Source of the DNA: a virus | DNA: 64,000 bases | UHGV virus genome: UHGV-0174779 | Strand: one strand, 5' to 3' | In this document: piece by piece, positions 2,188-25,229 of the stretch | How the letters are laid out: the number at the start of each line of letters is the position of its first letter | How positions within the stretch are numbered: the first letter of the stretch is position 1 | Notes under the pieces: generated by a model | Told to the model about the DNA's origin: nothing | Database searches by the model: none | What the model saw: only the letters and a program-made list of their open reading frames with translations | Position numbers and translations under genes: made by a program

Positions 2188-2254
2188 AGATTGTCCTCCT
2201 TGTTATATGTAGACAAAGAATATACATTACACACTAGCTTGTATAAGTCTTAAA

Positions 2255-2285: not shown

Positions 2286-2316
2286 CTTATGCAATCTCTT
2301 TACTAGTTACTATACA

Positions 2317-4676: not shown

Positions 4677-4716
4677 GTTATTTTAGCTCCTATACTATTA
4701 ATAATTAATTTGTCGA

Positions 4717-9884: not shown

Positions 9885-9953
9885 ACTTCCTCCAGTTTAA
9901 AAATAGAAAAGGGAAAGTCCCTTCGTCAAAGAACCTCCCCTTCTTTCCTTTAC

Positions 9954-10427: not shown

Positions 10428-10453
10428 TTTATACTCCTTCTACATTATCAACA

Positions 10454-10480
10454 ACACAAAAAGCCTCCCAACGGAGGCAA
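10454..10480 (-). terminator. Terminator-like hairpin upstream of terminase genes (minus strand)
   Basis: Minus strand GCCTCC-GUUG-GGAGGC followed by UUUUUGUGUU. Confidence 0.4.
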
Positions 10481-10483
10481 ACA

Positions 10484-10885: not shown

Positions 10886-10888
10886 AAA

Positions 10889-11116
10889 TTAATATTCCTT
10901 ATAAGTGTGTGGTTTGATAGTGGTGAACGCTCGGAAAAATAACCATCCTAGGCTACTAACTTCCATCGTTGCATCAAATTCTTCATCGTCATCTAAGTCA
11001 ACCAGACGACCAATGCATTCTAATTCTTCAGGGGATATCTTAACAAAGGCACAAGTCTCTGTTCTGAACCGTGGAATCACCTCTGATAAAAAGTCTAATA
11101 TTAAATTCATGATCAA
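10889..11116 (-). CDS. Hypothetical protein
   Basis: 75 aa ORF, start overlaps stop of upstream gene (ATGA). Confidence 0.35.
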   Translation of the reverse strand: MIMNLILDFLSEVIPRFRTETCAFVKISPEELECIGRLVDLDDDEEFDATMEVSSLGWLFFRAFTTIKPHTYKEY

Positions 11117-11469
11117 TCTCCATAATCTAATTTAACCAACCGTCCGCCTAGGTATCCATAATTTTCTGGCTTAAGGTCTGACAGGTAAAATTCTTTAGGA
11201 AGGGAGCCTTTCAAGGTGTGAAGCTCTGCCATCCACAATCCTCTGTGCTTAACCACCTTACACCTCTTCATTATTACTAAGAAACCAAACTTATCAGAGA
11301 AGACTACAGGACAAAGGTTGGGGTCTTTCATCTCAGAGAAATGTCTCTCTTGTAGGTTAGCAAGAATCCCTTTTAAGAAAAGCTTCCAAGATTTAAAAGT
11401 AGGAATCTTGATAGCATAACCTCTGAACAATATAACTGACCTAGTACAACCTCTTAAATCCAATCTCAT
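11113..11469 (-). CDS. Small protein with protein-kinase-like catalytic motifs
   Basis: 118 aa; GYAIKIP (VAIK-like), LQERHF, FLVIMKRC (hinge-like), DLKPEN (catalytic loop), KLDYG (DFG-like) in kinase-like order and spacing. Confidence 0.4.
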   Translation of the reverse strand: MRLDLRGCTRSVILFRGYAIKIPTFKSWKLFLKGILANLQERHFSEMKDPNLCPVVFSDKFGFLVIMKRCKVVKHRGLWMAELHTLKGSLPKEFYLSDLKPENYGYLGGRLVKLDYGD

Positions 11470-11576
11470 AATTCATCTCCCTTCTTTATTCCTAATAAGT
11501 CAGCGGCTATGTAACCAAACACAACAACAATAGGAACAGTGACAAAAAGAATTAAACCCAACAGTAACCATCCCAT
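11466..11576 (-). CDS. Small membrane protein (36 aa)
   Basis: MGWLLLGLILFVTVPIVVVFGYIAADLLGIKKGDEL, GAGGA RBS, stop overlaps next start; below ORF-track size cut-off. Confidence 0.3.
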   Translation of the reverse strand: MGWLLLGLILFVTVPIVVVFGYIAADLLGIKKGDEL

Positions 11577-11624
11577 ACTTTTGTCCTCTGAGTAAAAAAA
11601 AATATAAAGGGCACATCATAAGAC

Positions 11625-12413
11625 CTACCCGTAAAGGCCACCTCACATTAACACCCGTGAGTATACCTGTATTCCTTTTCGTAGTCTTCTTCAGAGAAGC
11701 TACCATATTCATCTTCAGTCATACATCCCTCTGATAAAAGTTAAAACATAAAGGGGACGTCATGTTAAGGCACTATCACATTAAGGCCATGTCACGTTAA
11801 GGCTACTTCATGTGCAGTATCCAATCCCGTAATTAAACCCTCCATAGTTATATATAAGAGTTTAAAATCCTGATTTGACCGAGTGGGGCTAGCCGCTTCC
11901 CGCGCGTTTCCTAAAAAGGGGGAGTCCTCATTTAAAAAAGGGTTATTGGCAATGCCTTTACACCTCCTTCCACGTTCCAACCTTTCCCCGTGCCTACTCC
12001 CCGTTATTCTTTCCCCGTGTATACTACCCAATACATTACCTACCCGTTTATTTAGTTCCCCTTTAAAGAGTGGATGAGAGGCTAGTCTTCCACTGTACCA
12101 ATAGATTGAGGCGATATAATGCCCATGAGTAATAGTCACAAGCCCCCATAGTTTGAATGTAAATGATTCTAAATGTAATGATTATGAGTGCAATAATGAT
12201 GTATGTATTAATTAAGTGGATGATTGTATTTCTTTTAATAATTTCTTTTATTCCTTTCTTTTTTCAGCGTTCTGTTGGTCTTTTTCTTTTATGAGTTGAT
12301 GATTATTTAAGTGGTATATTACTACCGCACTATCTAGCTACCTTTCCCCGTGGTCTGTCCTGCGGTTGTATGTCCCCGTCCTATATAGATAGTAGAAATA
12401 GTTTACCCGTGGG
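11625..12413 (+). repeat. Cluster of eight same-strand CCCGT(G) repeats
   Basis: tacccgt/acccgtg/tttccccgtg at about 11627, 11653, 11985, 11999, 12013, 12042, 12345, 12374 and 12405, all on the plus strand in the divergent control region. Confidence 0.5.
11758..11805 (+). repeat. Three tandem 16-bp direct repeats (TCAYRTTAAGGC-N4)
   Basis: tcatGTTAAGGcacta / tcacaTTAAGGccatg / tcacGTTAAGGctact, perfect 16-nt periodicity. Confidence 0.5.
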
Positions 12414-12640
12414 CTTGCTTTCCTTATCAGGTAGTGGTAAATTGAATCTATCGATTGAGTGGTTGGAGTAGTAGAGATGATAATCTTAGTAATGATGGTA
12501 ATAGCTGTAGTGCTTCCTTTACTTGCTCTGATTGTTAGTGAAGTGGTTGAGTTGTTCACTGACAAAAGATTAGAAGTAGTTGATAAACCAAGCAAGTTTG
12601 ATGGTGCTCAGTTTAGTAGTAAGAAAGTTGAAATTAATTG

Positions 12641-12669
12641 TTGACATGTTAGGTAGTAAGAAATATATT
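12641..12669 (+). promoter_or_regulatory. Sigma70-type promoter (TTGACA-N17-TATATT)
   Basis: Consensus -35 at 12641-12646 and -10 at 12664-12669, about 40 nt upstream of gene 12711. Confidence 0.5.
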
Positions 12670-12710
12670 TATCTCATTGAAACGAAGCATACCAACTAAA
12701 GGAATCAATC

Positions 12711-13190
12711 ATGAATAAGGCAAACTTTGTAATCGGTGCTCTGGTATTAACCTTCGGTAGCATGGCTATCGCTGACAAGATTGCTAGTGCTCCAGTTGCT
12801 CAAGCTGCTGTAGTCATGAGTGATGCTGCTGACACCTTCGTTAGCAACGCCCCTAAAGGTTGGCTGGTTTGTAAAGGATTGGATTCAGATAATGTCACTA
12901 CGTTGATGAAAGTTAAATTATCTAACGTAACCAATCGTGGCATGGTATTGTCTACTCGTACACTTGACAACCAGAATAATGAGGATATTCTGCTTTCCCG
13001 TAAAGACAATGACCCAGAGTTGATTACTTTTGGCGATGTGCAGACTATTAAAGGTTCTAAAGTTGTGACTAATCTGGTAACATATGGCACAATGCAAGAA
13101 ACCATGTTAGCCACCTCTGTCTACAGTGGGGAAGATAACAGTATTTGGACTTTCCGCTTTCAGATGGGTGATTGTGTTAAAGCAAAATAA
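12711..13190 (+). CDS. Secreted early protein (signal peptide)
   Basis: 159 aa; N-terminal MNKANFVIGALVLTFGSMAIA signal-like segment; AAGGAA RBS. Confidence 0.6.
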   Translation: MNKANFVIGALVLTFGSMAIADKIASAPVAQAAVVMSDAADTFVSNAPKGWLVCKGLDSDNVTTLMKVKLSNVTNRGMVLSTRTLDNQNNEDILLSRKDNDPELITFGDVQTIKGSKVVTNLVTYGTMQETMLATSVYSGEDNSIWTFRFQMGDCVKAK

Positions 13191-13193
13191 TAG

Positions 13194-13222
13194 TTGACAC
13201 GGTTATAGATTGGCAGTATTGT
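13194..13222 (+). promoter_or_regulatory. Sigma70-type promoter (TTGACA-N17-TATTGT)
   Basis: Same architecture and shared leader (ctaaaggaatcaa) as the promoter at 12641. Confidence 0.5.
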
Positions 13223-13257
13223 TACCTCATTAAGACAACACTAAAGGAATCAAGACA

Positions 13258-13587
13258 ATGAAAACTCTGATTGCATCTGCTCTTTTATCTGTAGCTGTTC
13301 TCTCAACTGTAGGATGCTCTTCTTCTCCGCGTCCCAATGGTTGGTGTGCTCTGGAAGTTGAGGGCACTTGTGTGATGCGTTGGAAAGATGGTGTTAAGGT
13401 TCCTGCTGGTGAGATTGATATGAAGTACGAAGGTGCTAGTTGCTCTAATGGTGGATCTGTTGATGAGAAGGCCTATCGTGAGCGTGATATGAAAACACAA
13501 GCTGATTGGAAGAAGTCAGACTTTATTTCCCGAGCAACTCATTGCGGTGGCAACACTTCCACTAAGGGTAAAGAATGGGACATTTAA
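13258..13587 (+). CDS. Lipoprotein (paralog of 21232-21528)
   Basis: 109 aa; lipobox LSTVGC; RPNGWCALEVEGTCVMRWKDGVKVPAGEIDM shared almost residue-for-residue with the ORF at 21232. Confidence 0.65.
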   Translation: MKTLIASALLSVAVLSTVGCSSSPRPNGWCALEVEGTCVMRWKDGVKVPAGEIDMKYEGASCSNGGSVDEKAYRERDMKTQADWKKSDFISRATHCGGNTSTKGKEWDI

Positions 13588-13684
13588 AAAGAAGGGTTTG
13601 TAATACCAGTTCTACTTTGTTATCTTTGATTTTCACGGTGATTGCTACTGCAATTGCTTACTATTTCTTAATTGTTTTGGGAGT

Positions 13685-13957
13685 GTGATACCAATGGGTA
13701 ATGAAACTATTGCGCTGATTGATACGCATAATTACGGTGGCGTTACGCTCTCCTTTGATGAGTCAATCGACTATGCTTATTTGTCTTTTCTTACGAAAGG
13801 TGAGATAAAAACCATTAGCTTTCCTGCGGTCTATTTAGTGCAAGATTATCTCACTATTGGGAAGTATTTAGCTCAACGTGGGATTCTTCTATCGCTGGAA
13901 GAAGTGGAACAGATCAGTATAGCATTTTTTGTCGAGGGTAGTAATGAAGAAGAGTGA
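13685..13957 (+). CDS. Hypothetical protein
   Basis: 90 aa ORF, GTG or ATG (13694) start. Confidence 0.45.
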   Translation: MIPMGNETIALIDTHNYGGVTLSFDESIDYAYLSFLTKGEIKTISFPAVYLVQDYLTIGKYLAQRGILLSLEEVEQISIAFFVEGSNEEE

Positions 13958-14051
13958 TTATTTTTGGCGGTGCTTATTCGTTGTTACAGTGGCGTTATTT
14001 GTCTCTGATATGCTTTATTCTTACGTTTTATAACTATAGGTGACTATTATC

Positions 14052-14417
14052 ATGGGTGTTATCAAGTTTGTAGTGAAAGTGATTGTAGGCTTCTTTCTGG
14101 TTGTTCTTCTGTTAGGTGTCCTGCTGTCGTCTATTGGTAGTGTAAAGGCTGCAACGTTCACGCCTGATACTATCGAAGGCTTGCAATGCACCTATCTTAT
14201 AGAAGATTATGAAACTGGTAAAAAGTCACCTAAGGTTATTATTTTACATGTAGAAGATTTTGAGAGTGTCATAACCTACGACAAGTCTATCCACATGACT
14301 AACGAAACCACTGGTAAGCAAATTACGGTCGATCACTTGCTGCGCTCGTCGTTGACGCTCTTTGATGAATCTATGAACGAAATAAAATCCGGTAATGGTC
14401 AGTGTGTAAATCCATAG
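14052..14417 (+). CDS. Membrane protein (N-terminal transmembrane helix)
   Basis: ORF 14040..14417; ATG 14052 with AGGTGA 9 nt upstream; hydrophobic VIVGFFLVVLLLGVLLSSIG. Confidence 0.5.
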   Translation: MGVIKFVVKVIVGFFLVVLLLGVLLSSIGSVKAATFTPDTIEGLQCTYLIEDYETGKKSPKVIILHVEDFESVITYDKSIHMTNETTGKQITVDHLLRSSLTLFDESMNEIKSGNGQCVNP

Positions 14418-14493
14418 GCTTAATCTTTCTGCTGTATTGTGCCGTGGTCATGCCTATGGTCATAATTTATCTGATTCTCTAATCCTTCCTGTG

Positions 14494-14525
14494 AGCCTCC
14501 TAGTGAGGCTTTTCTCATTTCTAAG
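14494..14525 (+). terminator. Rho-independent terminator
   Basis: AGCCTC-ctagt-GAGGCT followed by TTTCTCATTT. Confidence 0.45.
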
Positions 14526-14776
14526 GCGATTGTATGCCTTACCCTCTTTTAGCTCGTTGTGATGCGTCTGAGAGCGTCAAATATTGCTTTACAAGCCTGT
14601 TCTAGTGTGTTATTCGCGTGCGCGTTCCTTTATATCTCTCCTCCCTGAAAATAATCAAAATAAAGGTTGCTTTCCTTCCTCACTTCCTCTATTATCTATT
14701 CATCGGTTAAGCAGTACCAAGTAGACAACCTGATAAGTCGTACGAAAAACAGGTAATCGATAAGAAATAAAAAAGA

Positions 14777-14805
14777 TTGACAAGATGCTCAAACGTAGTA
14801 AGATG
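14777..14805 (+). promoter_or_regulatory. Sigma70-type promoter (TTGACA-N16-TAAGAT) with A-rich upstream tract
   Basis: First of three tandem promoters in a 1.6 kb non-coding region. Confidence 0.5.
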
Positions 14806-14923
14806 GGTATCAGAAACAAAGCAAGGAAACTTGCAAATGCTCTTTAAAAACTTATCGTCCTGCCCTTTCGCAAAGATTCGCGCGAGATAAGGGAAAAGAA
14901 TAAAAAGAGGACGATAAAAAGAG

Positions 14924-14951
14924 TTGACAAGGTAATCTAATAAGTTATAAT
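14924..14951 (+). promoter_or_regulatory. Sigma70 consensus promoter (TTGACA-N16-TATAAT)
   Basis: Perfect -35 and -10 hexamers, preceded by aaaaagag A-tract. Confidence 0.6.
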
Positions 14952-15099
14952 GATTACCAGTTAGCAGATACACCGCTAACAAGTTCTTTAACAATATGAC
15001 CTGATTCACTAGCCGAGCCGCTTAGTAATCCTCAATCAAATATAGCTGATTGATATATCCTCCCAATAAAGGGAACGACGAAAAAGATTAAAAAGATGG

Positions 15100-15128
15100 T
15101 TGACAGGCGCTGAGAGATAGGTCATAAT
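15100..15128 (+). promoter_or_regulatory. Sigma70-type promoter (TTGACA-N17-CATAAT)
   Basis: Third tandem promoter, preceded by aaaaagatgg. Confidence 0.55.
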
Positions 15129-16051
15129 GAGCACATTAGCTAAGGGAAACATTCCGAAGCGAAGCGAGACAACGGCTAACAGTTGCATAGCGTGAGTAAA
15201 CATGCTGATAGATTTACCGCTCTTTAACAATTTAAACGTTCTTCTATATCGGTTGAACATGCTTGAAGATAATAACCATCGGAAAGTATGCCAGATAAAA
15301 CGGTGTAAGATTCTCTAAACTATCAGAGGAAACAATCTTGCAATCCCTTACTGGAAACGTCACCACTGACAAACGGATTCACTGAGTGCACGCAGAGACT
15401 TAAGCTAATCGCCCACGGTTAAGGGTAGCGGCGGTCATCGCTAACAAGGCGCTACAGTGAAAGAAGTTAATCAGGGTAGACAAGTCCGACGAATACAAGC
15501 TCAATTGCGAGCGGCGGGGAGCGGTTAAAAAGTGGCAAATTGCTATTTAACAATAAGGCTTAGTGTGAACGTTTACGATGTGAACGGCTTGAGATTCATC
15601 TTATGATGAAAGTACATAGTCGGTTTATGTAGTAAACTTGCCGAAAGATATAAAACGTCGGAACATTAGACGGTCAATGACTCTTTCGCAATAGTATCCC
15701 GTAGTGGGCGATGACTAGCGATTGAGAGTTGATACAAAAGGATAGGCGAGAGCGAAAACAAAGTAGACGATATTGCCGACGGTTACAATAAATGTAACTA
15801 ATTAGAGTCGGACGCACTGCCTTATTGTGATGATTGATCATCGCTATCAGGTCGGCTTAGTTTATAGCGACTAATTAAAGATACCAGATGAAACATCACG
15901 GATAAGGAGGCGGAAAGGTTAACTCCTGATAAGACCGCCTCACTTACCTGTAACTACTTAAAAAGTGAGTGGTTAGAGTTAAGTTAATAGTGACTTAAGC
16001 AAGCTCATAGAGAGCGGGGCATAGTGCCCTTACAATTGAAAGGTGAATATC

Positions 16052-16951
16052 ATGGCTAAAATCTTTACTCTGGTTAACGAATCTGGTTTTAACGCTCTGG
16101 CTAACAACATCCGCAGCAACAACGCAGCGATTAAGCAAGACGTATCTAACTTCCTGTTAGGGCACTTACAGCACTTCCGCAGCAACGGTAAGAAACTGGA
16201 CGTATTACAAGCGGCGGTTGATTTCCTGTTAACTGAACGCTTCCGCGATATGGATGTTATTGCTACCGCAATCACTTTCTTAACCCCTATCAAGTTTAAC
16301 ACCGATGCGGCAAATGGTCGTAAAAAGTGGATTAATCTGGAAGGTGAAGCGAAAGCTAAAGAAGATGCGAAAGAAGCGCAGATTAAAACCAAAATGGAGC
16401 AAAACCGCGCTCGCTGGTCAAACGCTTTCGAAAACTTTGCTTTAGGTCGTGCAATTGAAGTTGATAATCCTAACTTCTACAAAGGCTGTAACGACAACGT
16501 GGCGGCACACCTGCAAATCCCGGCGAAAAACAAGGAAGATTTTAACCAAGATATTTACGCTTTGGTTGAACGCTTGAACGCAATCCGCATTGAAGCCAAG
16601 TTGCTGGCTGATGAACGCAACGGCGCAACTAGTGATAACACTATTGCCTTAAGTGAAGAAGTTGGGAAGGTTAAGAAGTCTTTCGACTCACTCATCAAGA
16701 AAGTAACGGCCTCAACTGTAGCGATCTCTGATGACTATCTGATGAACGCATCAAGCAAGGAACTGGAATCACTTGATTCATATGCTGATGAAATGGAAAA
16801 GGCTGTTGCAGCTATGCAGGAGAAGTTAGAAAGTCTGCGCGGTCGTATCTCTTCAACGGTTGCTACCCGTACCGAACAAGCTGCGAAAGAAGAAGAGGAA
16901 GAAGTATTGCGTAAAGCGGCTGAAATTATGGCAGCACGTCAGGCAGCATAA
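16052..16951 (+). CDS. Early protein of unknown function
   Basis: ORF 16043..16951; ATG 16052 with AAAGGTGA RBS; 299 aa, helical, C-terminal EEEEE run; first long ORF after the promoter cluster. Confidence 0.6.
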   Translation: MAKIFTLVNESGFNALANNIRSNNAAIKQDVSNFLLGHLQHFRSNGKKLDVLQAAVDFLLTERFRDMDVIATAITFLTPIKFNTDAANGRKKWINLEGEAKAKEDAKEAQIKTKMEQNRARWSNAFENFALGRAIEVDNPNFYKGCNDNVAAHLQIPAKNKEDFNQDIYALVERLNAIRIEAKLLADERNGATSDNTIALSEEVGKVKKSFDSLIKKVTASTVAISDDYLMNASSKELESLDSYADEMEKAVAAMQEKLESLRGRISSTVATRTEQAAKEEEEEVLRKAAEIMAARQAA

Positions 16952-16973
16952 GTAAGACAATTTGAATAAACAT

Positions 16974-17010
16974 GAGGCGCTATCTTAACGGGTAGCGCCT
17001 TTTCTTTTAT
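16974..17010 (+). terminator. Rho-independent terminator
   Basis: AGGCGCTA-N10-TAGCGCCT followed by TTTCTTTTAT. Confidence 0.55.
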
Positions 17011-17062
17011 CAGTGCATTGATTCAGTGTGCTAATAAAAGAATCTAATCAAAGGTGACGATT

Positions 17063-17281
17063 ATGTTAACTACGCATACCACGATCTACAGAAACCTTCG
17101 CAACGGTCAGCATTACCGCCTATCTAAAAAGTATGGCGTTGAATGTAAATGTATACTTACTGGTGAATGGTATCCGTCTCCAATGAAGATTGAGACGTTA
17201 GAACATGAAGCGATTAGTTATACCATCACGCAAGAAACAACGTTAGGCCGTGTGCTACGTAAGTTAGGATTGAGAAAATGA
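17063..17281 (+). CDS. Hypothetical protein
   Basis: ORF 17054..17281, ATG 17063 after AAAGGTGA. Confidence 0.45.
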   Translation: MLTTHTTIYRNLRNGQHYRLSKKYGVECKCILTGEWYPSPMKIETLEHEAISYTITQETTLGRVLRKLGLRK

Positions 17282-17502
17282 TCATTAGTGAAGGCTTTGG
17301 TAAATGTCCTATTTGTAAGAAACATCGCAGCACCGGAAACCATCGCAAATGTAGTAGGATTCTCCAGAAACGCCATAACCATGAAGAAGCAAAGAAGGTT
17401 TACGAAAACCAACGCTTAGAAGAGGTTAGAGCAATGGCAATTAAAGCATCATACAAACACTCCCACCGCATTGAATATATGAAAAGGTATCAAGCATCAT
17501 GA
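17278..17502 (+). CDS. Hypothetical small basic protein (CPICKK motif)
   Basis: 74 aa, start overlaps upstream stop (ATGA). Confidence 0.45.
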   Translation: MIISEGFGKCPICKKHRSTGNHRKCSRILQKRHNHEEAKKVYENQRLEEVRAMAIKASYKHSHRIEYMKRYQAS

Positions 17503-17705
17503 TTAACATTAAACCTCTTAGCAAGACCCCTATCGCCCTTCTTGGCCGTCGTGTTTCATACCGATACTTAAATAAAGGTAAGGCAATGACAGGAGTAGTT
17601 GCAACGATTAGTACACAAGGAAAGAAATTTCTCAACATGTCCGTTAAGATGGATGATGGTACAGTTTTAACACGTAGTTGGAAGTCGTTCGGTTTACTCA
17701 ATTAA
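17499..17705 (+). CDS. Hypothetical protein
   Basis: 68 aa, translationally coupled. Confidence 0.45.
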   Translation: MINIKPLSKTPIALLGRRVSYRYLNKGKAMTGVVATISTQGKKFLNMSVKMDDGTVLTRSWKSFGLLN

Positions 17706-17774
17706 GTTGTTTGTTCAAGCCTATCGCCTTGATGGGCTTGCCCGATATAACTTATCACTGAAAGGAATAAGATT

Positions 17775-18218
17775 GTGGCTAAATCAAAAATCAGCATGAA
17801 GGGCGGTCGTTGTTTTGCTATCTCTGAATTAGAGAAAGAGAAACCAAAGGCAACCAATCACGTCAGTAAGCGTAGTTTAAAACGTCGTGCTGCAAAGGCT
17901 GAGGCTGAATCCCATACTCCTTCCAGTGTGGCAAAACGTGTAGGCCATCGTGTTCATCGTGCTGATGCGTTATTGTTAGCCGATCATAAACGTTCTTTAT
18001 TACAGAGCGGGGGAGCTAAAACAGAAGAGGAGAAGAAGTTAGAAATCTTCTGTAATGGTCGCACCCGTGGTAAGCAGAAGTTTAAGGGTAGCACGAAAGA
18101 CCCTCAAGCATTCCCTAAGACAAGCCAGTGCGCACCTGATGTTTTCTACGCAGATAGTAAACACAAGTGGGGAGTTGAAAAATACATTGACCCCATCAAA
18201 GAGGCAAGGGTTAAATAG
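17775..18218 (+). CDS. Hypothetical basic protein
   Basis: 147 aa, Lys/Arg-rich, GTG start with AAGGA upstream. Confidence 0.5.
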   Translation: MAKSKISMKGGRCFAISELEKEKPKATNHVSKRSLKRRAAKAEAESHTPSSVAKRVGHRVHRADALLLADHKRSLLQSGGAKTEEEKKLEIFCNGRTRGKQKFKGSTKDPQAFPKTSQCAPDVFYADSKHKWGVEKYIDPIKEARVK

Positions 18219-18298
18219 TAGGACTATAGCCCCCTCTTTTAGTACTATGACGCTCTCTCTGTCGCGTAGTGCCCTCTCCCCATTTGAAGCTTCCGCAT

Positions 18299-18322
18299 AG
18301 CCGCCTTTGAGCGGCTTTTTGC
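18299..18322 (+). terminator. Rho-independent terminator
   Basis: AGCCGC-ctttga-GCGGCT followed by TTTTTG. Confidence 0.5.
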
Positions 18323-18383
18323 GTTGCTGTAAGTGCATTTGCGAGTGTATTTATAGCAACGGTCATGTGTTGCTTTCAGGTTT

Positions 18384-18410
18384 GCCCCGGCTACGGCTGG
18401 GGCTTTTTTG
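18384..18410 (+). terminator. Rho-independent terminator
   Basis: GCCCCGGC-tacg-GCTGGGGC followed by TTTTTTG. Confidence 0.55.
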
Positions 18411-18458
18411 TACCCGTAGAATAGGAGGTAGCAAGTTCTGATAACAACGGCCCAGCTA

Positions 18459-18848
18459 ATGTTGACATTGACTATTTATTATGAGGCAGGGAATCAGCCA
18501 ACCGCATGTAAAGCTATGGTTGCGGATACCGTGATAAATAGAATGGCCCAACGAAAACTGACCGCTGAACAGGTGATAAGACAAAAGAACCAGTTTGAGT
18601 GGATTCCGGTACTATTAAAACAGGAGAAACCTTATAAACGTTATGTAAAGCTGATTCGTGATAAAAATCCGATGACTAAGCAAGCCATTGGAGAAAGCGA
18701 GCGGCTAGCTAAACGTGCCCTTAAGAAGAATTATGTTCCGCTGTACAGTGGGACTTACTTTCAGAGTAAGAGCGAAGGGGTGCCAAAATGGTATGCCAAT
18801 CCTATGTATTGTGGTGATTTAGTGTTCGATAACAGCTCTAGGGAATAA
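18459..18848 (+). CDS. SleB-like cell-wall hydrolase (candidate endolysin)
   Basis: 129 aa; YYEAGNQ...CKAMVADTVINRMA...QKNQFEWIP resembles the SleB/Hydrolase_2 core. Confidence 0.55.
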   Translation: MLTLTIYYEAGNQPTACKAMVADTVINRMAQRKLTAEQVIRQKNQFEWIPVLLKQEKPYKRYVKLIRDKNPMTKQAIGESERLAKRALKKNYVPLYSGTYFQSKSEGVPKWYANPMYCGDLVFDNSSRE

Positions 18849-19046
18849 TCACTGGTGCCAGATTTGACAAACTAAATTCCTTTATAAACCAACCACTTAG
18901 TAAATTTATTGAAAAAGATGGTAGTATTCTGGGACTATGGTAATGCTCTGTATATAGACCCTTTGAAAATTTCTTAGAAAATAAGTTTACTAAATATAAC
19001 TTACTTAAATAATATTACTTTTAATCTCTGATAAAGGGTAAATAAT

Positions 19047-19349
19047 ATGACTTTAGAGATATATAAATTCCTTTTTGTAAGCTGTTTAACTATCAGCGTT
19101 ATAGGATTTATTGTTCTAAGAAACAAAGCAGCAAGCTGGGAGAGAAAGTATAAATCTTTGATTCAAGTAGATGAGATGTATAATGAGAAAGTTAAAGTAA
19201 CACTCAACGATCTTATTATGCAAGTAGAGGACAGAAACAAGCGTCTTCAGAATCTTAACCATGAAGTATTACGCCTTGCTCGTGCTAATGAAGACTTGCG
19301 AGTAGCTATTGCTAAGCAGCAGGAGCTCTCTGACGAGCTTAAAGTATAA
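19047..19349 (+). CDS. Membrane protein with coiled-coil (N-terminal transmembrane helix)
   Basis: 100 aa; FLFVSCLTISVIGFIVL then heptad-rich region. Confidence 0.5.
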   Translation: MTLEIYKFLFVSCLTISVIGFIVLRNKAASWERKYKSLIQVDEMYNEKVKVTLNDLIMQVEDRNKRLQNLNHEVLRLARANEDLRVAIAKQQELSDELKV

Positions 19350-19360
19350 AAAACTAAGTA

Positions 19361-19500
19361 ACATCAACCTATAGCCCTTGTGTTTATCAGAGGGCTATGT
19401 GAGGGTGTTCCTCATTAACTTATTAATTCAGGCATATGCCACACCGCTAGGGAGAGCTTGCTCAAACATCCGGTGCTAGACTAAAACCTGTTAATTTTCG
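19361..19500 (+). repeat. Conserved intergenic module, family 1, copy A
   Basis: ctatagccc-loop-gggctatgtgag hairpin then gctagggagag...ctcaaacatccg; homologous to 23276-23410. Confidence 0.5.
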
Positions 19501-19660
19501 ATATACTTTCTGATATGTAGGGGTACATATTGGTTTGGGATTTAGGAGACTCTCTAGGGGTAGGGAGTCTTCACTAGTTTGTAGAGTAATTGGCTCTATA
19601 GTGAGAGTCATCCGCTATATCAACTGGCAATAATGCCTCCACTAATAGAGAGAGATAGGT

Positions 19661-19801
19661 ATGAAAGTATCAACCAAACGTATGAACCGCCCTGAACGTA
19701 TGGATGCAGTAGCTAATGGTGCTCTGAAACTGGAAGGCTTCTGGCTTCATGCAATGTCAGCCATCCGTAACAAGCAAGGCAATTGGACCTATAACAGTTA
19801 A
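19661..19801 (+). CDS. Small hypothetical protein (46 aa)
   Basis: MKVSTKRMNRPERMDAVANGALKLEGFWLHAMSAIRNKQGNWTYNS; followed directly by a strong terminator. Confidence 0.4.
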   Translation: MKVSTKRMNRPERMDAVANGALKLEGFWLHAMSAIRNKQGNWTYNS

Positions 19802-19806
19802 TAAAT

Positions 19807-19840
19807 AAAAGGCTGCCTTCGGGTGGCCTTTGTTGTTTTA
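19807..19840 (+). terminator. Rho-independent terminator
   Basis: AAAGGCTGCC-TTCG-GGTGGCCTTT followed by GTTGTTTT. Confidence 0.6.
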
Positions 19841-19883
19841 ATTAAGGGACAGCTCTTACTTAAACTAACAAGAGGAAGCTAAA

Positions 19884-20060
19884 ATGTCTAAGCAAACAAT
19901 CAAGAATACGCAAGCTGGTTACTCTTATGTTAACTCTCCTTGCTGTGGTGCTCGTGTTAATCTGGTTAAGGAAGAGGTTCATATCATTCAGCGTGGCGCT
20001 ACTGTTGTTCGTTCATGCTGTGTCTGTGGTAATGACATTTTTATCAAAGGTAAAGTATGA
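19884..20060 (+). CDS. Small zinc-ribbon protein (58 aa)
   Basis: CCGARVN...CCVCGND Cys pairs; AGAGGAAG RBS; stop overlaps next start. Confidence 0.45.
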   Translation: MSKQTIKNTQAGYSYVNSPCCGARVNLVKEEVHIIQRGATVVRSCCVCGNDIFIKGKV

Positions 20061-20329
20061 AAAAGCTTATAATCCTAGTGTGTCTTATCTCTGCATTTGG
20101 CTGTAAGGAAAGGGAGAGTATCTACAAAAGTGACTATGAAAGTTCTGGGTTTTGGTACGGAGGTTTCAGGTCAGAGCCACATACAGCAGATAATATGCTA
20201 TTCTCCGTAAAAAGAAGCTCACAAGAACTTTCTTACTATGCATGTGCCTCTTTAGCTGAAGCTCATACCAAAACATATCCGGACGGTGGTAGAATATATT
20301 GTCTATATCTAGGAAAATGGGAAAACTAA
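20057..20329 (+). CDS. Lipoprotein
   Basis: 90 aa; MKKLIILVCLISAFGC lipobox. Confidence 0.55.
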   Translation: MKKLIILVCLISAFGCKERESIYKSDYESSGFWYGGFRSEPHTADNMLFSVKRSSQELSYYACASLAEAHTKTYPDGGRIYCLYLGKWEN

Positions 20330-20331
20330 TC

Positions 20332-20583
20332 ATGAAAAACTTCCAAGCTGCACCAATAACTAAAGTGATCGCAGTTAATGATGTGATGATGACTGTTCCT
20401 CTGAACACTCGTCACATTGCGATTGATAAGATGGGCTATGTGTGGGCTTGGAAGATTAAGCCCTCGTACAATGAACTCTTTGATGAGTTTGTTTGTACTG
20501 GCACATATAGCCCTACGTTCTTGGGTTTGTTTGGAGAGTTTGAAGGTCAGTATAAAATCATCACTCTCCCTGCTTGTGCTTGA
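20332..20583 (+). CDS. Hypothetical protein
   Basis: ORF 20299..20583; ATG 20332 immediately after upstream stop. Confidence 0.45.
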   Translation: MKNFQAAPITKVIAVNDVMMTVPLNTRHIAIDKMGYVWAWKIKPSYNELFDEFVCTGTYSPTFLGLFGEFEGQYKIITLPACA

Positions 20584-20590
20584 GGATTAA

Positions 20591-20696
20591 CGAGAGCTCT
20601 TAGTGAGGGTGTATCTTCCCCGCCTTCTAAGCGGTCGTTAAAGAAGTAAATGGAGTATGCAGGTTCGAGTCCTGTCACCCTCGCTAAGAGCTCTTG
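20591..20696 (+). other. Long inverted repeat forming a 21-bp stem that encloses a tRNA-like T-arm (candidate RNase III site or structured RNA)
   Basis: cgagagctcttagtgagggtg (20591-20611) pairs with caccctcgctaagagctcttg (20676-20696) with two G-U pairs; enclosed GGTTCGAGTCC matches the tRNA T-loop consensus. Confidence 0.4.
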
Positions 20697-20703
20697 AGGT
20701 ATT

Positions 20704-21219
20704 ATGAAGCTAGATCTAAGTAAAGCAGTTGTTGATAAAGGTGTTGGTTATTTGTATGTGTACCAACCAACACACCCTATGGCCAATAAAGCTGGAAAGG
20801 TGTATGTTCATAGATATGTTGCTCAAAATTTCTACGGTGTCGAACTGAACTCTGACCTAGTGGTTCATCACAAGGATGAGAATAAGTTAAACAACGAACC
20901 ATCTAATTTAGAAATCATGACTTATGAGGAGCATAGCAGGCACCATCATGGGGCTGTCATGGAAGAAAGGTTATGTTCTTTTTGTGGAGAGATTTACCTT
21001 GTTTCAGAGAATAGCAACCAAAGGTTTTGCTCACAGCTTTGTGCCAAATTAGATAGCAGACGGTTTGAAATAACAAAAGAATCTCTTCAGTCTTTAATAG
21101 ACATTTACCCCGTGTATGTAGTAGGGAGGTTACTGAGTGTTAGTGATTCGGCTGTCCATAAGAGATGTAGGATTCTTGGTGTTGTTAAAAAGCCGAAAGG
21201 TTTTTGGTTAACTAAATAG
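20704..21219 (+). CDS. HNH homing endonuclease
   Basis: 171 aa; VHHKDENKLNNEPSNLEIMTYEEHSRHH HNH motif, C-terminal helix-turn-helix-like region. Confidence 0.7.
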   Translation: MKLDLSKAVVDKGVGYLYVYQPTHPMANKAGKVYVHRYVAQNFYGVELNSDLVVHHKDENKLNNEPSNLEIMTYEEHSRHHHGAVMEERLCSFCGEIYLVSENSNQRFCSQLCAKLDSRRFEITKESLQSLIDIYPVYVVGRLLSVSDSAVHKRCRILGVVKKPKGFWLTK

Positions 21220-21231
21220 AATGAGGTAGTT

Positions 21232-21528
21232 ATGAGTTGGGGTGGTGTAATATCCTTAATCTGTATCTTCCTTGTCTGTGTGGTCCTTACAGGCTGCGTA
21301 CAGAGCCGTCCTGATGGATGGTGTGCAGTAGCAGTGGAAGGTGTTTGTGTTTCTCGCTGGCATAAGGGTGAGAAGGTTCCTTCTGGTGAAATTGATATGC
21401 GCTGGAACGGAGCAACCTGCTCTAATGCTAACCCGTCTATCAACGAAGAGAAATCTACGCCAGACAATGTTGTGATTGACACAGCGTTGTGGTGTGGTGG
21501 CTCAGTAAAAACAACCGGTAAGGAGTGA
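21232..21528 (+). CDS. Lipoprotein (paralog of 13258-13587)
   Basis: 98 aa; lipobox LTGC; RPDGWCAVAVEGVCVSRWHKGEKVPSGEIDM. Confidence 0.65.
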   Translation: MSWGGVISLICIFLVCVVLTGCVQSRPDGWCAVAVEGVCVSRWHKGEKVPSGEIDMRWNGATCSNANPSINEEKSTPDNVVIDTALWCGGSVKTTGKE

Positions 21529-21532
21529 TAAT

Positions 21533-21775
21533 ATGACAGCTCATTATTGGAACACAAAGAAGCTTCTTGAAGAGATGGCTGGAAGTAGCAGAGTACAGCT
21601 AATATCTATGCTTCGAAGGGATGCTCGCTCTTTACGCTTCCAAGTAAAGATTGGTAACTTCAGTGATGGTCTTTATTACACATTGAAGGAAAGGATTAAG
21701 AAGACATACTTCATTATATATGGTTGCCCTAAGGGCGATTTTACTTATGACTTTTGGAATACTGACTACGATTAA
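21533..21775 (+). CDS. Hypothetical protein
   Basis: 80 aa ORF, tight spacing. Confidence 0.45.
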   Translation: MTAHYWNTKKLLEEMAGSSRVQLISMLRRDARSLRFQVKIGNFSDGLYYTLKERIKKTYFIIYGCPKGDFTYDFWNTDYD

Positions 21776-21784
21776 GGAGTTATT

Positions 21785-22006
21785 ATGTTGTTAGAAGCTG
21801 AGCAATCATTGCCAGTAGTCCCTCTGTCCTCACTTCCTATCGGAAGTGCTTTTAGACATGGGGAGGTTTTTTGGATTAAGGGTAATCAAGTGGTTGGAGG
21901 GTATATCACCTGCATCAACATTGGCAACGGTGTTGTTGATGGTTTTCGTCCAGCCGCTGAAGTCACTCCTCAAGCTGATGCAAAGGTTGTAGGTTTAGTT
22001 TATTAG
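21785..22006 (+). CDS. Hypothetical protein
   Basis: 73 aa ORF with GGAG RBS. Confidence 0.45.
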   Translation: MLLEAEQSLPVVPLSSLPIGSAFRHGEVFWIKGNQVVGGYITCINIGNGVVDGFRPAAEVTPQADAKVVGLVY

Positions 22007-22323
22007 AGAGTTACCATGATCAAATCGTGACTATCGTGAAGGATTCTTACGAGAGTCCTTTGAGATAGGACTTCAGATCTCCTATCAAACTAACATTCAC
22101 GTAACTAGCCCATAAGGGGCGTTACCCTTTAATAACCCAGCCCACTAAGGGGGGCGGGAGTTTAGTGCTGGATTAGCATAACGCTTATTCCTACAAAGGC
22201 AACCGATTGTTAGATCTTACATGCAAACTTAATTAATAGGATATGGGAGGATTCGTCCCCTCCCCCTATTTTATTGAATCTTTATCTAAGCAAGTCTTAT
22301 ATAAATGTTTAATAGGAGGTTAT

Positions 22324-22635
22324 ATGAAACCCGCACAAATCCAATGGACTCCTTGGCAGATTGATTTGCTGAAGAAGCTTATCAGTGAACATTCTGTTGA
22401 AGAAACGGCTGTCATGATGGGAACAACAGCACAGATTATTAATGCTGCGTGTTCTCGTTTTAAAATCTCTCGTGCTAAAGCTCGATTGAAGTGGTCTGAA
22501 GAAGAAGATCAGTTTGTTATCCGTAATGCCGGGTTCATGTCTATTCAGAGAATGGCTGACATGCTCGGTAGAAGTTATGCTGCTGTACAGAACAGGGCAT
22601 GTATGCACCTTAATATTAGCCTCAAACTTAAATAG
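22324..22635 (+). CDS. Myb/SANT-like DNA-binding protein (putative regulator)
   Basis: ORF 22243..22635; ATG 22324 after AGGAGG; two W-x-EE/W-x-P...A-x-Q helix-turn-helix-like repeats. Confidence 0.5.
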   Translation: MKPAQIQWTPWQIDLLKKLISEHSVEETAVMMGTTAQIINAACSRFKISRAKARLKWSEEEDQFVIRNAGFMSIQRMADMLGRSYAAVQNRACMHLNISLKLK

Positions 22636-22643
22636 GAATCAAT

Positions 22644-22889
22644 GTGAAGATCATTCCCAAGATTAAAGATAATACTGTTTCCTTGTCTACTATCATTCCC
22701 GGAAACCCATTCGTAATTCAACGTGGCTCAGCATCTCCTCAATATTACATGAGAGTTGAAAACACTTCTAGCAATATTAGTGTAGTTAACGGTTGGATTA
22801 CTGTGGTAAATCTTCTCACAGGGGTCTTATGTGCTAAAGGTGCTGATACTCAGGTGGAAATGATTCGCATGTCAGTGGTTCAGGAGTAG
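22644..22889 (+). CDS. Hypothetical protein
   Basis: 81 aa, GTG start. Confidence 0.4.
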   Translation: MKIIPKIKDNTVSLSTIIPGNPFVIQRGSASPQYYMRVENTSSNISVVNGWITVVNLLTGVLCAKGADTQVEMIRMSVVQE

Positions 22890-23040
22890 CGTAATTATTC
22901 GGTTCGTAAACGGACAGAAAAAGGTAGCTAAATAAGCCCTCTTCTCTCCTCCTTTTAGTACTATGACGCCTCTTTTTAGGCGGCCCAATTTGCGTAGGGA
23001 ATTCCCTCTACGCAGCCATAATTTTTAAGGAATTTCCCCT

Positions 23041-23274
23041 ATGTCTAAAGTAAGTGCAATTGATGCAATCCGTCAACCGTTCCAGTTCCAATCCAAATCA
23101 ACCCAAACCTTCAGCGAATCTAAGCAAATTCGCTTGGGTGGCACAGAGAAAACTGTGTTCGATCTGGCTAAAAACAAGAGCGTTACCGTAGTTGATGGTG
23201 GCACTCTGGTTAACGTTTCTCATCGCATCCGCACTGGCAAAACTGCCAAAGACCGTACCAAGAAAGGTGAGTAA
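23041..23274 (+). CDS. Hypothetical protein
   Basis: 77 aa ORF. Confidence 0.45.
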   Translation: MSKVSAIDAIRQPFQFQSKSTQTFSESKQIRLGGTEKTVFDLAKNKSVTVVDGGTLVNVSHRIRTGKTAKDRTKKGE

Positions 23275-23275
23275 C

Positions 23276-23410
23276 ACCTATAGCCTTCTTCGGAGGGCTA
23301 TGTGAGTTATTCTGACTCAACTAACCTAATCTTAATATATTTCCCGTATGGGGCCGATGCTAGGGCGAGGAGTATTCCTCAAACATCCGTCGGATAGATA
23401 TTTTAAGAGC
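23276..23410 (+). repeat. Conserved intergenic module, family 1, copy B
   Basis: ctatagcc-loop-gggctatgtgag hairpin then gctagggcgag...ctcaaacatccg; homologous to 19361-19500. Confidence 0.5.
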
Positions 23411-23456
23411 AGGTTATCCACAGATATTGGGTAATATCTTTTTGTGTTTAAAGCTT

Positions 23457-23482
23457 GACTCTTTTCGGAGAGTCCTTTTTTA
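23457..23482 (+). terminator. Terminator-like hairpin
   Basis: GACTCT-tttcgg-AGAGTC followed by CTTTTTT. Confidence 0.4.
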
Positions 23483-23500
23483 AATTCAAAGAGAGGAAAT

Positions 23501-23653
23501 ATGTCTAAATTAGATTTAAAACTGCTAGCAGCAGCGGTAGTGATTTGTGCACTAGCACTGGTAACGCAGAGAACATCTGGATTTATTCAGTGTTTCTTTT
23601 CTGGGCAATCCACTTATCAGTGGATTATTGACGAGTGTAAACAACAGGAGTAA
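23501..23653 (+). CDS. Small membrane protein (50 aa)
   Basis: MSKLDLKLLAAAVVICALALV...; GAGAGGAAA RBS. Confidence 0.35.
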   Translation: MSKLDLKLLAAAVVICALALVTQRTSGFIQCFFSGQSTYQWIIDECKQQE

Positions 23654-23655
23654 GC

Positions 23656-24018
23656 ATGAATACACGTCCCATTAAGGGCAACGTTAATATTGAAACTCTG
23701 AACAAGGTTGCATCAAACCTCGGTGGTATGTCCAACGAAGAACTTGAGCAAGAGCTTGCTTGGATTGCAAATGGTATTACGGTAGCGAAAAGTAAGATTG
23801 CTCGTGAGCAAAGTAATATGAAAGCTCACAAGTATGTTATACGTCGCGCAAACACGTTACCAGAGCGGGTTGTACATCTTGCCCGCCAGAACTACGAAAG
23901 TGCTAAAGAAGCTCTGCTTGAAGCTGAGTTTCAGAAGCACCAATTTATGAACAACTACAGAAACTTCCGAGATATTCTTTATATCCGTAAGTCAATTGAG
24001 TTGATTAAAAACCAATAG
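23656..24018 (+). CDS. Hypothetical protein
   Basis: 120 aa, leads the enzyme block. Confidence 0.5.
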   Translation: MNTRPIKGNVNIETLNKVASNLGGMSNEELEQELAWIANGITVAKSKIAREQSNMKAHKYVIRRANTLPERVVHLARQNYESAKEALLEAEFQKHQFMNNYRNFRDILYIRKSIELIKNQ

Positions 24019-24029
24019 AGGTTGGTACA

Positions 24030-25229
24030 ATGTTTCCAGTAACATTAGAAGATACTGAAGGTAATGTTTTAACGGTTTATCCTCCTTGCTATGGATTCCT
24101 TCAGCTCCGCAACTATAACGGTGGTGCTGATGAAGGTGATGATGGCAAATACGATGAATATTTTGAACCTAACACCTATGAGGCAACTCGTGGGTGGAAT
24201 ATGCACGTTAAGGTTTGGAGCGAAGCATCTAATATTCGTAGTGCAGATGGGCAAGACTGCCTGTTAAGTGACGAGATGGATATGTGCGATATTAAACATA
24301 TCTGGAACTCTGGAACCCACTTAGATATGTTAGGTTTTCTGAGTTATCGTGACAAAAAGCCTGTAACCAAAGGGTTGGGTTGGGGTAATATTGATCAGGA
24401 AGGTGAGCTTAAAAATAACATTGAACGTTGGAATGACAAAAACCCTGAGTATCAAACCACACCTCGTGCTGTACTGGAAGCTATGGAAGCATTTGTGGAC
24501 AAAGACCGTCCCTCCTGTTTACGCTGGCACGAAAAAGGTTTTATGGGTGTAGCAACTGAGAATGTCCATGCTGACCGTTGTCTGTTCTATTTGATGTTAG
24601 ACCGAACCTTCTATTGTGAAGATGAAGAGAGTCAGGTTGAAACCTTCCTTCATAAATGGTTGGTTGAAGGCTGGACAATCCTTCAGGCCTATGTTTACTC
24701 ACGAATGGTTAGCACTTACACTAACCTCTTAGGAGAAACAAAAACAACTCTGGTTGGTAATGATTGGGATGCTTGTATCTTCCCAGCATCACTGTTTACA
24801 GTTGGTATGGCTGATAAGTATACTGAAGCATTTAAAGTGCCTTGGCGTCAGCAGTCGTACAATCATGGTTGTGGTCACTTCCGTGATGAAGATTTTAAAT
24901 GGATTAGTTATGAAAATAACGAAACATCAGATTTACGAGTTAATAACTCAATGTTCTTGCCGGTGATGCACCCCGATTTAGTAAAGAGTGGATCAGAAAC
25001 ACTTGAATGTGACAACCTTCTGGTTAACTTTGTTCGTCGGGTATCTAAAGGTGAAAGAACAGCTGACAAATTACTCTACGGTAATCGTATCGAGACTAAG
25101 GATATGTTCAACATCTATAACATTATTCAGCGATTTAGTAGTGGAACTCTGGACCAAAGTTCGGAGTATTCAGTGGTTCCATCCTCTGAATGGGATGGTA
25201 TTATGAGCGGATTATTTTTAGGAAAATAA
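24030..25229 (+). CDS. Hypothetical protein (member of ligase/amidotransferase block)
   Basis: 399 aa, no motif recognised by eye; tightly packed with downstream enzymes. Confidence 0.55.
   Translation: MFPVTLEDTEGNVLTVYPPCYGFLQLRNYNGGADEGDDGKYDEYFEPNTYEATRGWNMHVKVWSEASNIRSADGQDCLLSDEMDMCDIKHIWNSGTHLDMLGFLSYRDKKPVTKGLGWGNIDQEGELKNNIERWNDKNPEYQTTPRAVLEAMEAFVDKDRPSCLRWHEKGFMGVATENVHADRCLFYLMLDRTFYCEDEESQVETFLHKWLVEGWTILQAYVYSRMVSTYTNLLGETKTTLVGNDWDACIFPASLFTVGMADKYTEAFKVPWRQQSYNHGCGHFRDEDFKWISYENNETSDLRVNNSMFLPVMHPDLVKSGSETLECDNLLVNFVRRVSKGERTADKLLYGNRIETKDMFNIYNIIQRFSSGTLDQSSEYSVVPSSEWDGIMSGLFLGK

Follow-up and report, generated by a model that had tools for sequence, protein, structure and literature searches.

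Paralogous structured RNA modules in two early-region spacers of a phiEco32-like phage genome

We examined two intergenic spacers of UHGV virus genome UHGV-0174779, analyzed as one stretch of 64,000 nucleotides (nt; the window). The genome was assigned to Kuravirus (phiEco32 group), and the 7 kilobases (kb) around the spacers are 90-93% identical to about 100 Escherichia phages. Comparison with homologues and folding show that the spacers hold paralogous copies of one predicted structured RNA module on the + strand of the early region: copy A, from 19358 to about 19615, and copy B, at 23271-23485. We consider it very probable that these modules represent a real family of RNAs structured on the sense strand. 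The family is new: it has no Rfam match, and although phiEco32-like phages serve as a model of how phages take over host transcription, an RNA element in their early operon is undescribed in the literature searched, a set that did not include the two primary phiEco32 papers, on transcription and on the genome.

The relationship between the copies rests on several independent comparisons. The 12-mer GGGCTATGTGAG has exact matches at 19392 and 23295 only in the window, CTCAAACATCCG at 19461 and 23378 only, and GCTAGGGnGAG lies at 19446 in copy A and 23359 in copy B. Three common blocks, ACCTATAGCC, GAGGGCTATGTGAG and CTCAAACATCCG, occur in identical order in both. These matches bear out a preliminary description, which had placed two copies of an intergenic module at these loci. 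The local alignment of A with B scores 34, compared with 18.4 +/- 2.3 for 1000 dinucleotide shuffles, none of which scored as high; the possibility that the similarity is no better than that of chance AT-rich spacers, raised when the repeat was first described, can thus be set aside. Identity between A and B is confined to short blocks of 10-14 nt. A covariance model built from B-type copies of several phages, without any A sequence, recovers window copy A at 31.9 bits (E of about 1e-5 for 193 kb searched on both strands) and copy A of phage SU7 at 45.4 bits. Two candidates for a third copy were rejected: GGGCTATGTGTG at 20433 lies within a gene, with none of the other module parts around it, and CTATAGCCCCC at 18225 is unrelated.

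Homologue comparison and folding give both copies a common plan, consisting of a GTAACA box, the hairpins P1 and P2, an AU-rich single-stranded linker after P2, a core of 53 nt, the hairpin P6 with its GGGN loop, and terminal stem-loops. The 12-mer GGGCTATGTGAG spans the P1/P2 junction and comprises the 3' strand of P1 and the 5' strand of P2, while GCTAGGG-GAG...CTCAAACATCCG corresponds to the core internal loop plus the helix Pz. The first description, which had each copy begin at a gene stop with a hairpin, carry a GCTAGGG-GAG element about 50 nt further on and precede a small gene, agrees with what we find in both spacers, including the open reading frames (ORFs) at 19661 (A) and 23501 (B). 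In B (23272-23274) and in copy A of phiEco32 and O18-011, the upstream gene ends on the TAA of the GTAACA box. In window copy A the upstream gene differs from that of relatives and ends 12 nt earlier (ORF stop at 19347-19349), so that the TAA of the box, at 19359-19361, is an in-frame second stop. The length originally given to the repeat, about 130 nt, proved too short: the similarity is real, and the modules extend over about 215-255 nt, because P6 and the terminal stem-loops also match.

The core provides the strongest evidence for RNA structure. A 3-base-pair (bp) hairpin, Px, with a RUAU loop stands beside a helix of 5-7 bp, Py, which encloses CUAGGGN, the helix Pz (with a GAG...CUC base) and NAACAUC; both window copies carry this entire arrangement. 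Between Py and Pz lies a symmetric internal loop that never varies, 5'-CUAGGGN / NAACAUC-3', and about 14 unpaired core nucleotides are invariant from enterobacterial phages to a Flavobacterium-associated phage. Covariation was tested on 15 distinct core sequences, three A rows of which received one artificial A at an unpaired column to keep the MAFFT register. In this alignment 98.6% of cells fall in standard pairs, and 8 of 14 pairs are changed on both sides. None of 500 column shuffles matches these figures, and pairing falls to 32-50% when the partners are slid by 1-3 columns. Py has four versions that differ in sequence yet stay complementary (CACCG/CGGUG in A, AUAGCG/CGCUAU in contig L032, described below, and among B copies CCGAUG/CGUCGG in Kuravirus and UCGGUG/CGCCGA in 7-11-like phages), and Px occurs as CCC/GGG, GCC/GGC and GGC/GCC. 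Applied to complete modules, RNAalifold finds 11 compensatory pairs among 20 B copies, distributed over P1, P2, P4, Px, Py, Pz and the terminator extension, and 7 among 15 A copies. Recurrent G-U pairs (U16-G47 in 11 of the 15 core sequences) would be A-C mismatches on the opposite strand, and their frequency assigns the structure to the + strand, which is the sense strand of the operon. In both module alignments relatives differ by indels of 1-2 nt, which rules out a conserved reading frame in the modules.

No known RNA family accounts for this fold. At gathering thresholds, Rfam 15 returned only a tRNA at 20605-20683 for the whole window; at E <= 10, the two loci gave sub-threshold chance matches (PreQ1 at 18.7 bits, where the threshold is 39, and miRNA and snoRNA models). 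The core is aptamer-like in its covarying helices, a fold that by itself is no sign of ligand binding.

The features of copy A, all on the + strand, begin with the GTAACA box at 19358-19363. Folding and the A alignment define hairpin P1 (UAUAGCCCUU...AGGGCUAUG) at 19370-19398, which is abutted by P2 (GUGAGG-GUGUU-CCUCAU) at 19399-19415. The core, at 19431-19478, is composed of Px GGC-AUAU-GCC and of Py CACCG/CGGUG, enclosing CUAGGGA, Pz GAGC-UU-GCUC and AAACAUC. It is followed by P6 with a GGGG loop (19510-19533), the counterpart of B 23422-23439; by a 12-bp hairpin that also has a GGGG loop (19545-19572; -18 kcal/mol) and lacks a proper U tract; and by the hairpin GGCUCU-AUAGUG-AGAGUC (19591-19610), likewise without a U tract. 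The stem sequence of this last hairpin is that of the B terminator stem of relatives. Taken as a whole, copy A is not better folded than its shuffles (z = -1.0), and copy B clearly is (z = -4.5).

Copy B, also on the + strand, opens with the GTAACA box at 23271-23276, followed by P1 at 23279-23302 and P2 (UGAGUUA-UUC-UGACUCA) at 23303-23319, the latter with a compensatory change in SU7. The core, at 23343-23395, consists of Px CCC-GUAU-GGG and of Py CCGAUG/CGUCGG enclosing CUAGGGC, Pz GAGGA-GUAU-UCCUC and AAACAUC. In B the core is closed in addition by the long-range helices P3-P5, an imperfect duplex of about 18 bp whose 5' arm (UAACCU, UCUUAA, AUAUUU) lies at 23322-23342. The 3' arm, together with a single-stranded linker, makes up a 31-nt segment at 23401-23431 that is antisense to the host nrdD leader. 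An exact match to the DnaA-box consensus, TTATCCACA, occupies 23414-23422, and P6, with a GGGU loop, 23422-23439. The module ends in an intrinsic terminator (23446-23485), with a 7-bp stem at 23457-23474, a UUCG-type loop, six U residues (U6) at 23476-23481, and mutually pairing A/U flanks; the next ATG lies 20 nt further on. The stem and U6 are invariant in all 20 B copies. Directly behind the terminator, a 50-amino-acid ORF at 23501-23653 (+) is predicted to encode a hydrophobic peptide (MSKLDLKLLAAAVVICALALV...). This arrangement, in which a long structured leader precedes a small membrane peptide, recalls the layout of type I toxins; the ORF downstream of copy A is not hydrophobic.

Both spacers were found in about 100 phage records. 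Every Kuravirus or Suseptimavirus sequence examined has exactly two copies. Salmonella phage SE131 (Moazamivirus, Grimontviridae) has one B-type copy in the 85 of its 90 kb that were covered, and Cronobacter phage GAP52 (Grimontviridae) lacks the core motif. Scans of IMG/VR with three progressively relaxed core patterns returned known isolates only, and pattern scans of metagenomes returned only these phage groups plus one match, L018, which has the two loop motifs without Px and Py, scores a partial 19.7 bits and is treated as chance. The GTDB genomes, scanned with a 21-base pattern for which about three chance matches are expected in the collection, yielded a single contig, L032, binned in a Flavobacterium metagenome-assembled genome. 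Beyond the pattern, its element has Px and a 7-bp Py that is fully compensated, together with hairpins ahead of them and a further hairpin with a GGGG loop, and it scores 51.1 bits (E of about 1e-10) in the B-only covariance model, which was run on selected loci. The neighbors of the L032 element are phage genes: an Srd-like sigma70 decoy with a homologue in SE131, a glutamine amidotransferase and numerous small ORFs. Of the small ORFs at 1978-5668 (+) of this contig, at least six share the C-terminal motif (D/E)EENE and look like a paralogous early protein family. BLAST of the L032 element against phages gave nothing useful. The RNA family thus spans a broad podophage lineage, with hosts from Enterobacteriaceae to Flavobacterium. 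This distribution makes a phage-encoded partner of the invariant loop possible and weakens the idea of a partner universal to Bacteria.

Conservation of the modules exceeds that of neighboring genes at larger distances. A and B are each 86% identical to their counterparts in SU7, a phage of a different genus, in which the neighboring genes are 62-84% identical. In SE131, which belongs to a different family, B is still detectable by BLAST at about 70% identity, and the proteins flanking B in Kuravirus and SE131 have no detectable similarity (gp88 has no homologue in those phages). The upstream gene was therefore rejected as a conserved partner of B, since the upstream proteins of Kuravirus and SE131 are unrelated. 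The genes upstream of A vary among relatives while the module is kept, and the region from A to B is mosaic among Kuraviruses (coverage of 77-86% in 8-12 pieces). Such variation would be expected around a recombination linker or a mobile regulatory cassette of the T4 PeSL (promoter early stem-loop) type. This explanation, considered jointly with chance similarity of AT-rich spacers, is nonetheless very hard to credit: chance is excluded by the shuffles and the B-only model, there are only two copies per genome and neither has an early promoter, the common blocks of 10-14 nt are too short for homologous exchange, and the variation is compensatory. The recombination hotspot that had been offered as one possible function has no support either: identity is limited to these short blocks, and what is conserved is paired helices and invariant loops rather than neutral identity.

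The modules lie far inside a transcription unit. Window genes at 12.7-47 kb are on the + strand and are counterparts of phiEco32 early and middle genes; copy A corresponds to the spacer between phiEco32 genes 113 and 112, and copy B to that between genes 91 and 90. At 12641-15128 (+) lies a cluster of six predicted sigma70 promoters whose -35 hexamer is a perfect TTGACA; one of them, at 14924-14951, is a 12/12 consensus match, and this cluster presumably marks the start of the early operon. Promoter prediction found no comparable sigma70 promoters between 17 and 25 kb. In the published phiEco32-type early region, one promoter and a cluster of three stand at its start (PMC4281155). Prediction and literature together make both modules internal to a long early transcript, and we infer that copies A and B lie about 4.3 and 8.3 kb past the last strong promoter, within one long sigma70 early operon.

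The preliminary description had also suggested a promoter, for which the loci offer no support. We found no promoter of the modules' own, in them or just before them, and neither a sigma70-type site nor an element for gp36, the phage sigma factor, is common to the copies or kept in relatives. The gp36 middle/late element is tAATGTAtA, 6-8 bp upstream of the start site (PMC8948821). Its only match in our search, TAAAGTATA at 19340-19348 (+), has one mismatch and overlaps the stop before A; as a promoter it would start transcription on the module's first base. Relatives lack it at this place and there is none before B, and we regard it as probably a chance occurrence. The earlier inference that the conserved sequence has a function is supported, and of the functions first proposed, a small RNA is closest to the evidence from sense-strand helices and compensatory changes; a processing site, proposed together with the promoter, is a possible further role.

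Downstream of the promoter cluster the + strand is rich in terminator-like hairpins. Each of two scans of window 9000-25000 found 16, compared with about 5.5 in shuffles, an excess of about threefold, and 13 of the 16 are on the + strand at 17-25 kb (for example 16974, 18299, 18384, 19808 and 22990). Expression of the distal early genes must consequently rely on readthrough or antitermination.

Our tentative reading of the modules, to which we assign somewhat less than an even chance from the sequence evidence, is that they act in trans as non-coding RNAs. They would be cut or terminated out of the early transcript as stable structured RNAs. In copy B, its own intrinsic terminator would set the RNA 3' end, with partial readthrough allowing expression of the downstream metabolic and replication genes. 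The 3' arm of B, perhaps freed by cleavage of the imperfect P3-P5 duplex, would pair with the leader of the host nrdDG mRNA beside the Shine-Dalgarno sequence and so modulate anaerobic ribonucleotide reductase in the host. As for the core, its invariant internal loop would serve as a docking site for a conserved partner (a protein, RNA polymerase or a ligand), and copy A would combine this core with other 3' effector hairpins. Such a scheme explains why the U6 terminator is invariant, why B is conserved almost uniformly and why there is a host-specific complementarity.

The complementarity emerged from BLAST of copy B against 5426 complete Escherichia coli genomes, in 5423 of which it matches a single site, just upstream of nrdD and on the strand opposite to the gene. 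The phage + strand at 23401-23431 (UUUUAAGAGCAGGUUAUCCACAGAUAUUGGG) is complementary to about -14 to -44 of the E. coli nrdD leader, beside its GGAG Shine-Dalgarno sequence. In E. coli and E. albertii the 31-nt duplex has 29 Watson-Crick pairs, one G-U pair and one U-U mismatch. Complementarity was scored without gaps on windows of 55-76 nt, as full-length RNAduplex is uninformative (shuffles score equally). The FNR sites of nrdD are centered at -33.5 and -64.5 from the start site (PMC10425943), and an FNR box lies about 200 nt upstream of the complementary segment; with these sites and the start site upstream, the segment belongs to the transcribed leader.

We compared the nrdD leaders of E. 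coli, E. albertii, Salmonella, Citrobacter rodentium, Raoultella and one further enterobacterium. All share CUGUGGAUAACCUGUUCU, an invariant 18 nt just before the Shine-Dalgarno sequence, and differ in its flanks. The Kuravirus and SU7 segments pair over 31 nt with Escherichia leaders, 24 nt with those of Salmonella and Citrobacter, and 19 nt with Klebsiella-like leaders, and SE131 pairs over 19 nt (18 Watson-Crick and one G-U) with every leader. Two of the three phage-host differences, the one in SE131 and one of the two in Kuravirus, are G-U wobbles at the RNA level and the third is a U-U mismatch; this pattern fits RNA-RNA pairing and is weak evidence for it. RNAalifold pairs CUCUGUG of the nrdD leaders with UAUGGAG in a weak hairpin, which would conceal the Shine-Dalgarno sequence and has no covariation support. 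No nrdD was found in the B-bearing genomes over the ranges covered (the window, phiEco32 at 40-77 kb, SU7 at 40-76 kb and SE131 at 5-90 kb). GAP52, without the core motif, encodes its own NrdD and NrdG (L034 45027-47159), the NrdD being 58.6% identical to the E. coli protein; this contrast is a single case and only suggestive. Two further resemblances were discarded. The 9-mer CAAACATCC, shared by the core loop and the nrdD promoter region (L035 1707-1718), is treated as chance because the two occurrences differ in strand and are not collinear, and the one at nrdD lies upstream of the start site, and CCACAGATATTGGGTA resembles an NrdR box in a half-site only.

Several observations weigh against a trans-acting RNA. 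It does not explain the shared core or copy A, that is, what A and B have in common. Copy A has no terminator with a U tract, and no match of about 20 nt or more to E. coli genomes was found for it in the 28-Gb collection. The anti-nrdD segment of B is mostly sequestered in the intramolecular P3-P5 duplex. SE131 does not track its host: we found no Salmonella-specific extension, only the 19-nt core that is universal in the Enterobacteriaceae leaders. Conservation within Kuravirus is not above that of the flanks (97% for B and 89% for A relative to phiEco32), and the phylogenetic depth is small, with covariation drawn from few but clean events in about four independent lineages. Finally, the DnaA boxes shared by B and the host leaders mean that the B/nrdD similarity could reflect a common DNA site or an old capture of host DNA.

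This last point leads to an alternative at the DNA level, at least for B, in which the box would recruit or titrate DnaA (for example, at a replication origin or as a transcription roadblock) and the hairpins would form in single-stranded DNA. The perfect TTATCCACA at 23414-23422 is invariant in all B copies across three genera, although a 9-mer in 64 kb is not itself unlikely. The enterobacterial nrdD leaders, for their part, hold two conserved DnaA boxes (TGTGGATAA) about 80 nt apart (L035 1488-1668 and the leader alignment), and similarity to the host locus runs on past an indel into a T-rich tail. One review names H-NS and Fnr as nrdDG regulators and does not include DnaA. Against such a site stand the absence of the box from A and L032, so that it cannot be the shared function, the G-U pairs, which make the structure specific to the transcribed sense strand, and the match of E. 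coli phages to Escherichia-specific flanks beyond the 9-bp box, which DnaA binding does not need. GC skew tracks the direction of transcription, with no origin signal. We regard a DnaA element as improbable, with only a slim chance of being correct. Elsewhere in the window, a second exact copy of the 12-mer GGTTATCCACAG, which includes the DnaA-box consensus, occurs at 58857-58868 (-) within a coding region (chance of about 0.01); its surroundings are otherwise unlike copy B.

The main rival to the trans-acting RNA is a cis-acting intercistronic regulator, which seems to us possible but doubtful. Here the core would be an aptamer-like or RNA-polymerase-binding gate at the module's own terminator or hairpins, controlling whether transcription enters the next gene block, in the manner of a riboswitch-type attenuator or a put/nut-like antiterminator. 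The layout of B is suggestive, with a stop codon, a structured RNA, an intrinsic terminator and a ribosome-binding site 20 nt further on, and so is a small core with invariant unpaired nucleotides and covarying helices. P1 and P2 abut, as do the hairpins of put RNAs; a terminator follows them in B, but terminator-like hairpins also lie ahead of A, at 16974, 18299 and 18384. The terminator-rich + strand, with no internal sigma70 promoters, requires readthrough in any case, and the authors of the 7-11 study note that an antitermination strategy still awaits definition (PMC8948821). However, neither alignments nor folds revealed a conserved antiterminator pairing between core and terminator, which are separated by P6 and about 60 nt, and the terminator exists in B only, copy A having none with a U tract. 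No Rfam riboswitch or antiterminator family matches, and the early region of HK022 has no match to the core.

A more modest alternative is that the modules serve only as RNA punctuation. P1 and P2 would cap the upstream message after cleavage in the AU-rich linker or an RNase III cut in P3-P5, and the other hairpins would protect the downstream 5' end. The exact start of the module at a stop codon, the single-stranded linkers after P2 in both copies and the imperfect duplex of about 18 bp in B all suit such a role, and the RNase III sites in the early region of T7 offer a parallel. Processing would leave unexplained the 14 unpaired nucleotides that are invariant from enterobacterial phages to a Flavobacterium-associated phage, as well as the host-specific 31-nt complementarity, and P1, at only about 10 bp, is short for RNase III. 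We consider processing alone unlikely. Both it and the DnaA site are less able to explain the invariant loop common to A, B and L032.

Returning to the trans-acting RNA, a more specific version would make B an antisense RNA that retunes the anaerobic reductase by opening or blocking the CUCUGUG/UAUGGAG hairpin over the Shine-Dalgarno sequence, and would make the core a new ligand-binding, protein-binding or catalytic fold onto which effector arms have been grafted. This combination is speculative and more likely wrong than right. If it were true, a gut coliphage without its own nrdDG could secure its deoxynucleotide supply without oxygen, and a virulent phage would steer anaerobic deoxynucleotide synthesis by RNA instead of carrying nrdDG. 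In any event, an RNA family present in at least four phage lineages offers a concrete object for studies of early-operon control, RNA processing and RNA-partner recognition, and attention is drawn to the conserved DnaA-box segment in enterobacterial nrdD leaders.

Three other features of the window are recorded here. The tRNA call at 20605-20683 (+) is just over the Rfam threshold (30.2 against 29 bits), and relatives annotate tRNA-Arg there; ARAGORN finds zero tRNAs in the whole window, and the locus may be an atypical or decaying tRNA. A 121-nt direct repeat with 70% identity in the early region (13330-13450 and 21307-21427) is probably a duplicated gene segment. At 2337-3193 (-), within a late gene, three diverged copies (61-73% identity) of an 83-nt unit lie 255 and 519 nt apart and probably encode repeated protein domains.

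Among known systems, the T4-type PeSL is likewise a repeated intergenic early module bordering variable genes. The modules described here differ in having no early promoter, only two copies and a far larger structure. In the early region of T7, related structured RNase III sites recur between the genes of a polycistronic RNA, as these modules recur between early genes. No single irregular hairpin of about 20 bp is common to A and B, however, and it is the invariant internal loop that defines them.

The lambda nutR site and the HK022 putL and putR sites lie in long early operons, where they directly follow the stop of a promoter-proximal gene and precede a terminator, and put RNA consists of two abutting hairpins, present as two related copies per genome. 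The modules likewise follow a stop codon and, in B, precede a terminator in a long early operon. Their length is about three times greater, they follow several terminator-like hairpins at a distance of 4-8 kb from the promoters, and both belong to one operon. The core model detected nothing significant in HK022 at 20-32 kb (best 9.8 bits, E = 0.32), the early region that presumably carries putL and putR, sites not annotated in the record.

In their fold of about 50 nt, with covarying helices and about 14 invariant unpaired nucleotides retained in phages of distant hosts, the modules resemble small riboswitch aptamers and self-cleaving ribozymes, although they have no Rfam 15 match even at E <= 10 and no expression-platform switch was found. 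The remaining comparison is with the terminator-ended antisense small RNAs of phages and prophages, which are of the Hfq type, frequently originate from 3' ends and pair with host mRNAs close to the ribosome-binding site. Copy A, without a terminator or a detectable target, does not conform to this type, and B departs from it in lacking its own promoter, in its length of about 210 nt and in being highly structured, with its pairing segment largely buried. Yet B has a terminator with a U tract of at least six, its stem-loop and U6 following a U-rich stretch, and a conserved segment of 31 nt (19 nt in SE131) complementary to a host leader near the Shine-Dalgarno sequence, and in these respects it is like such RNAs.

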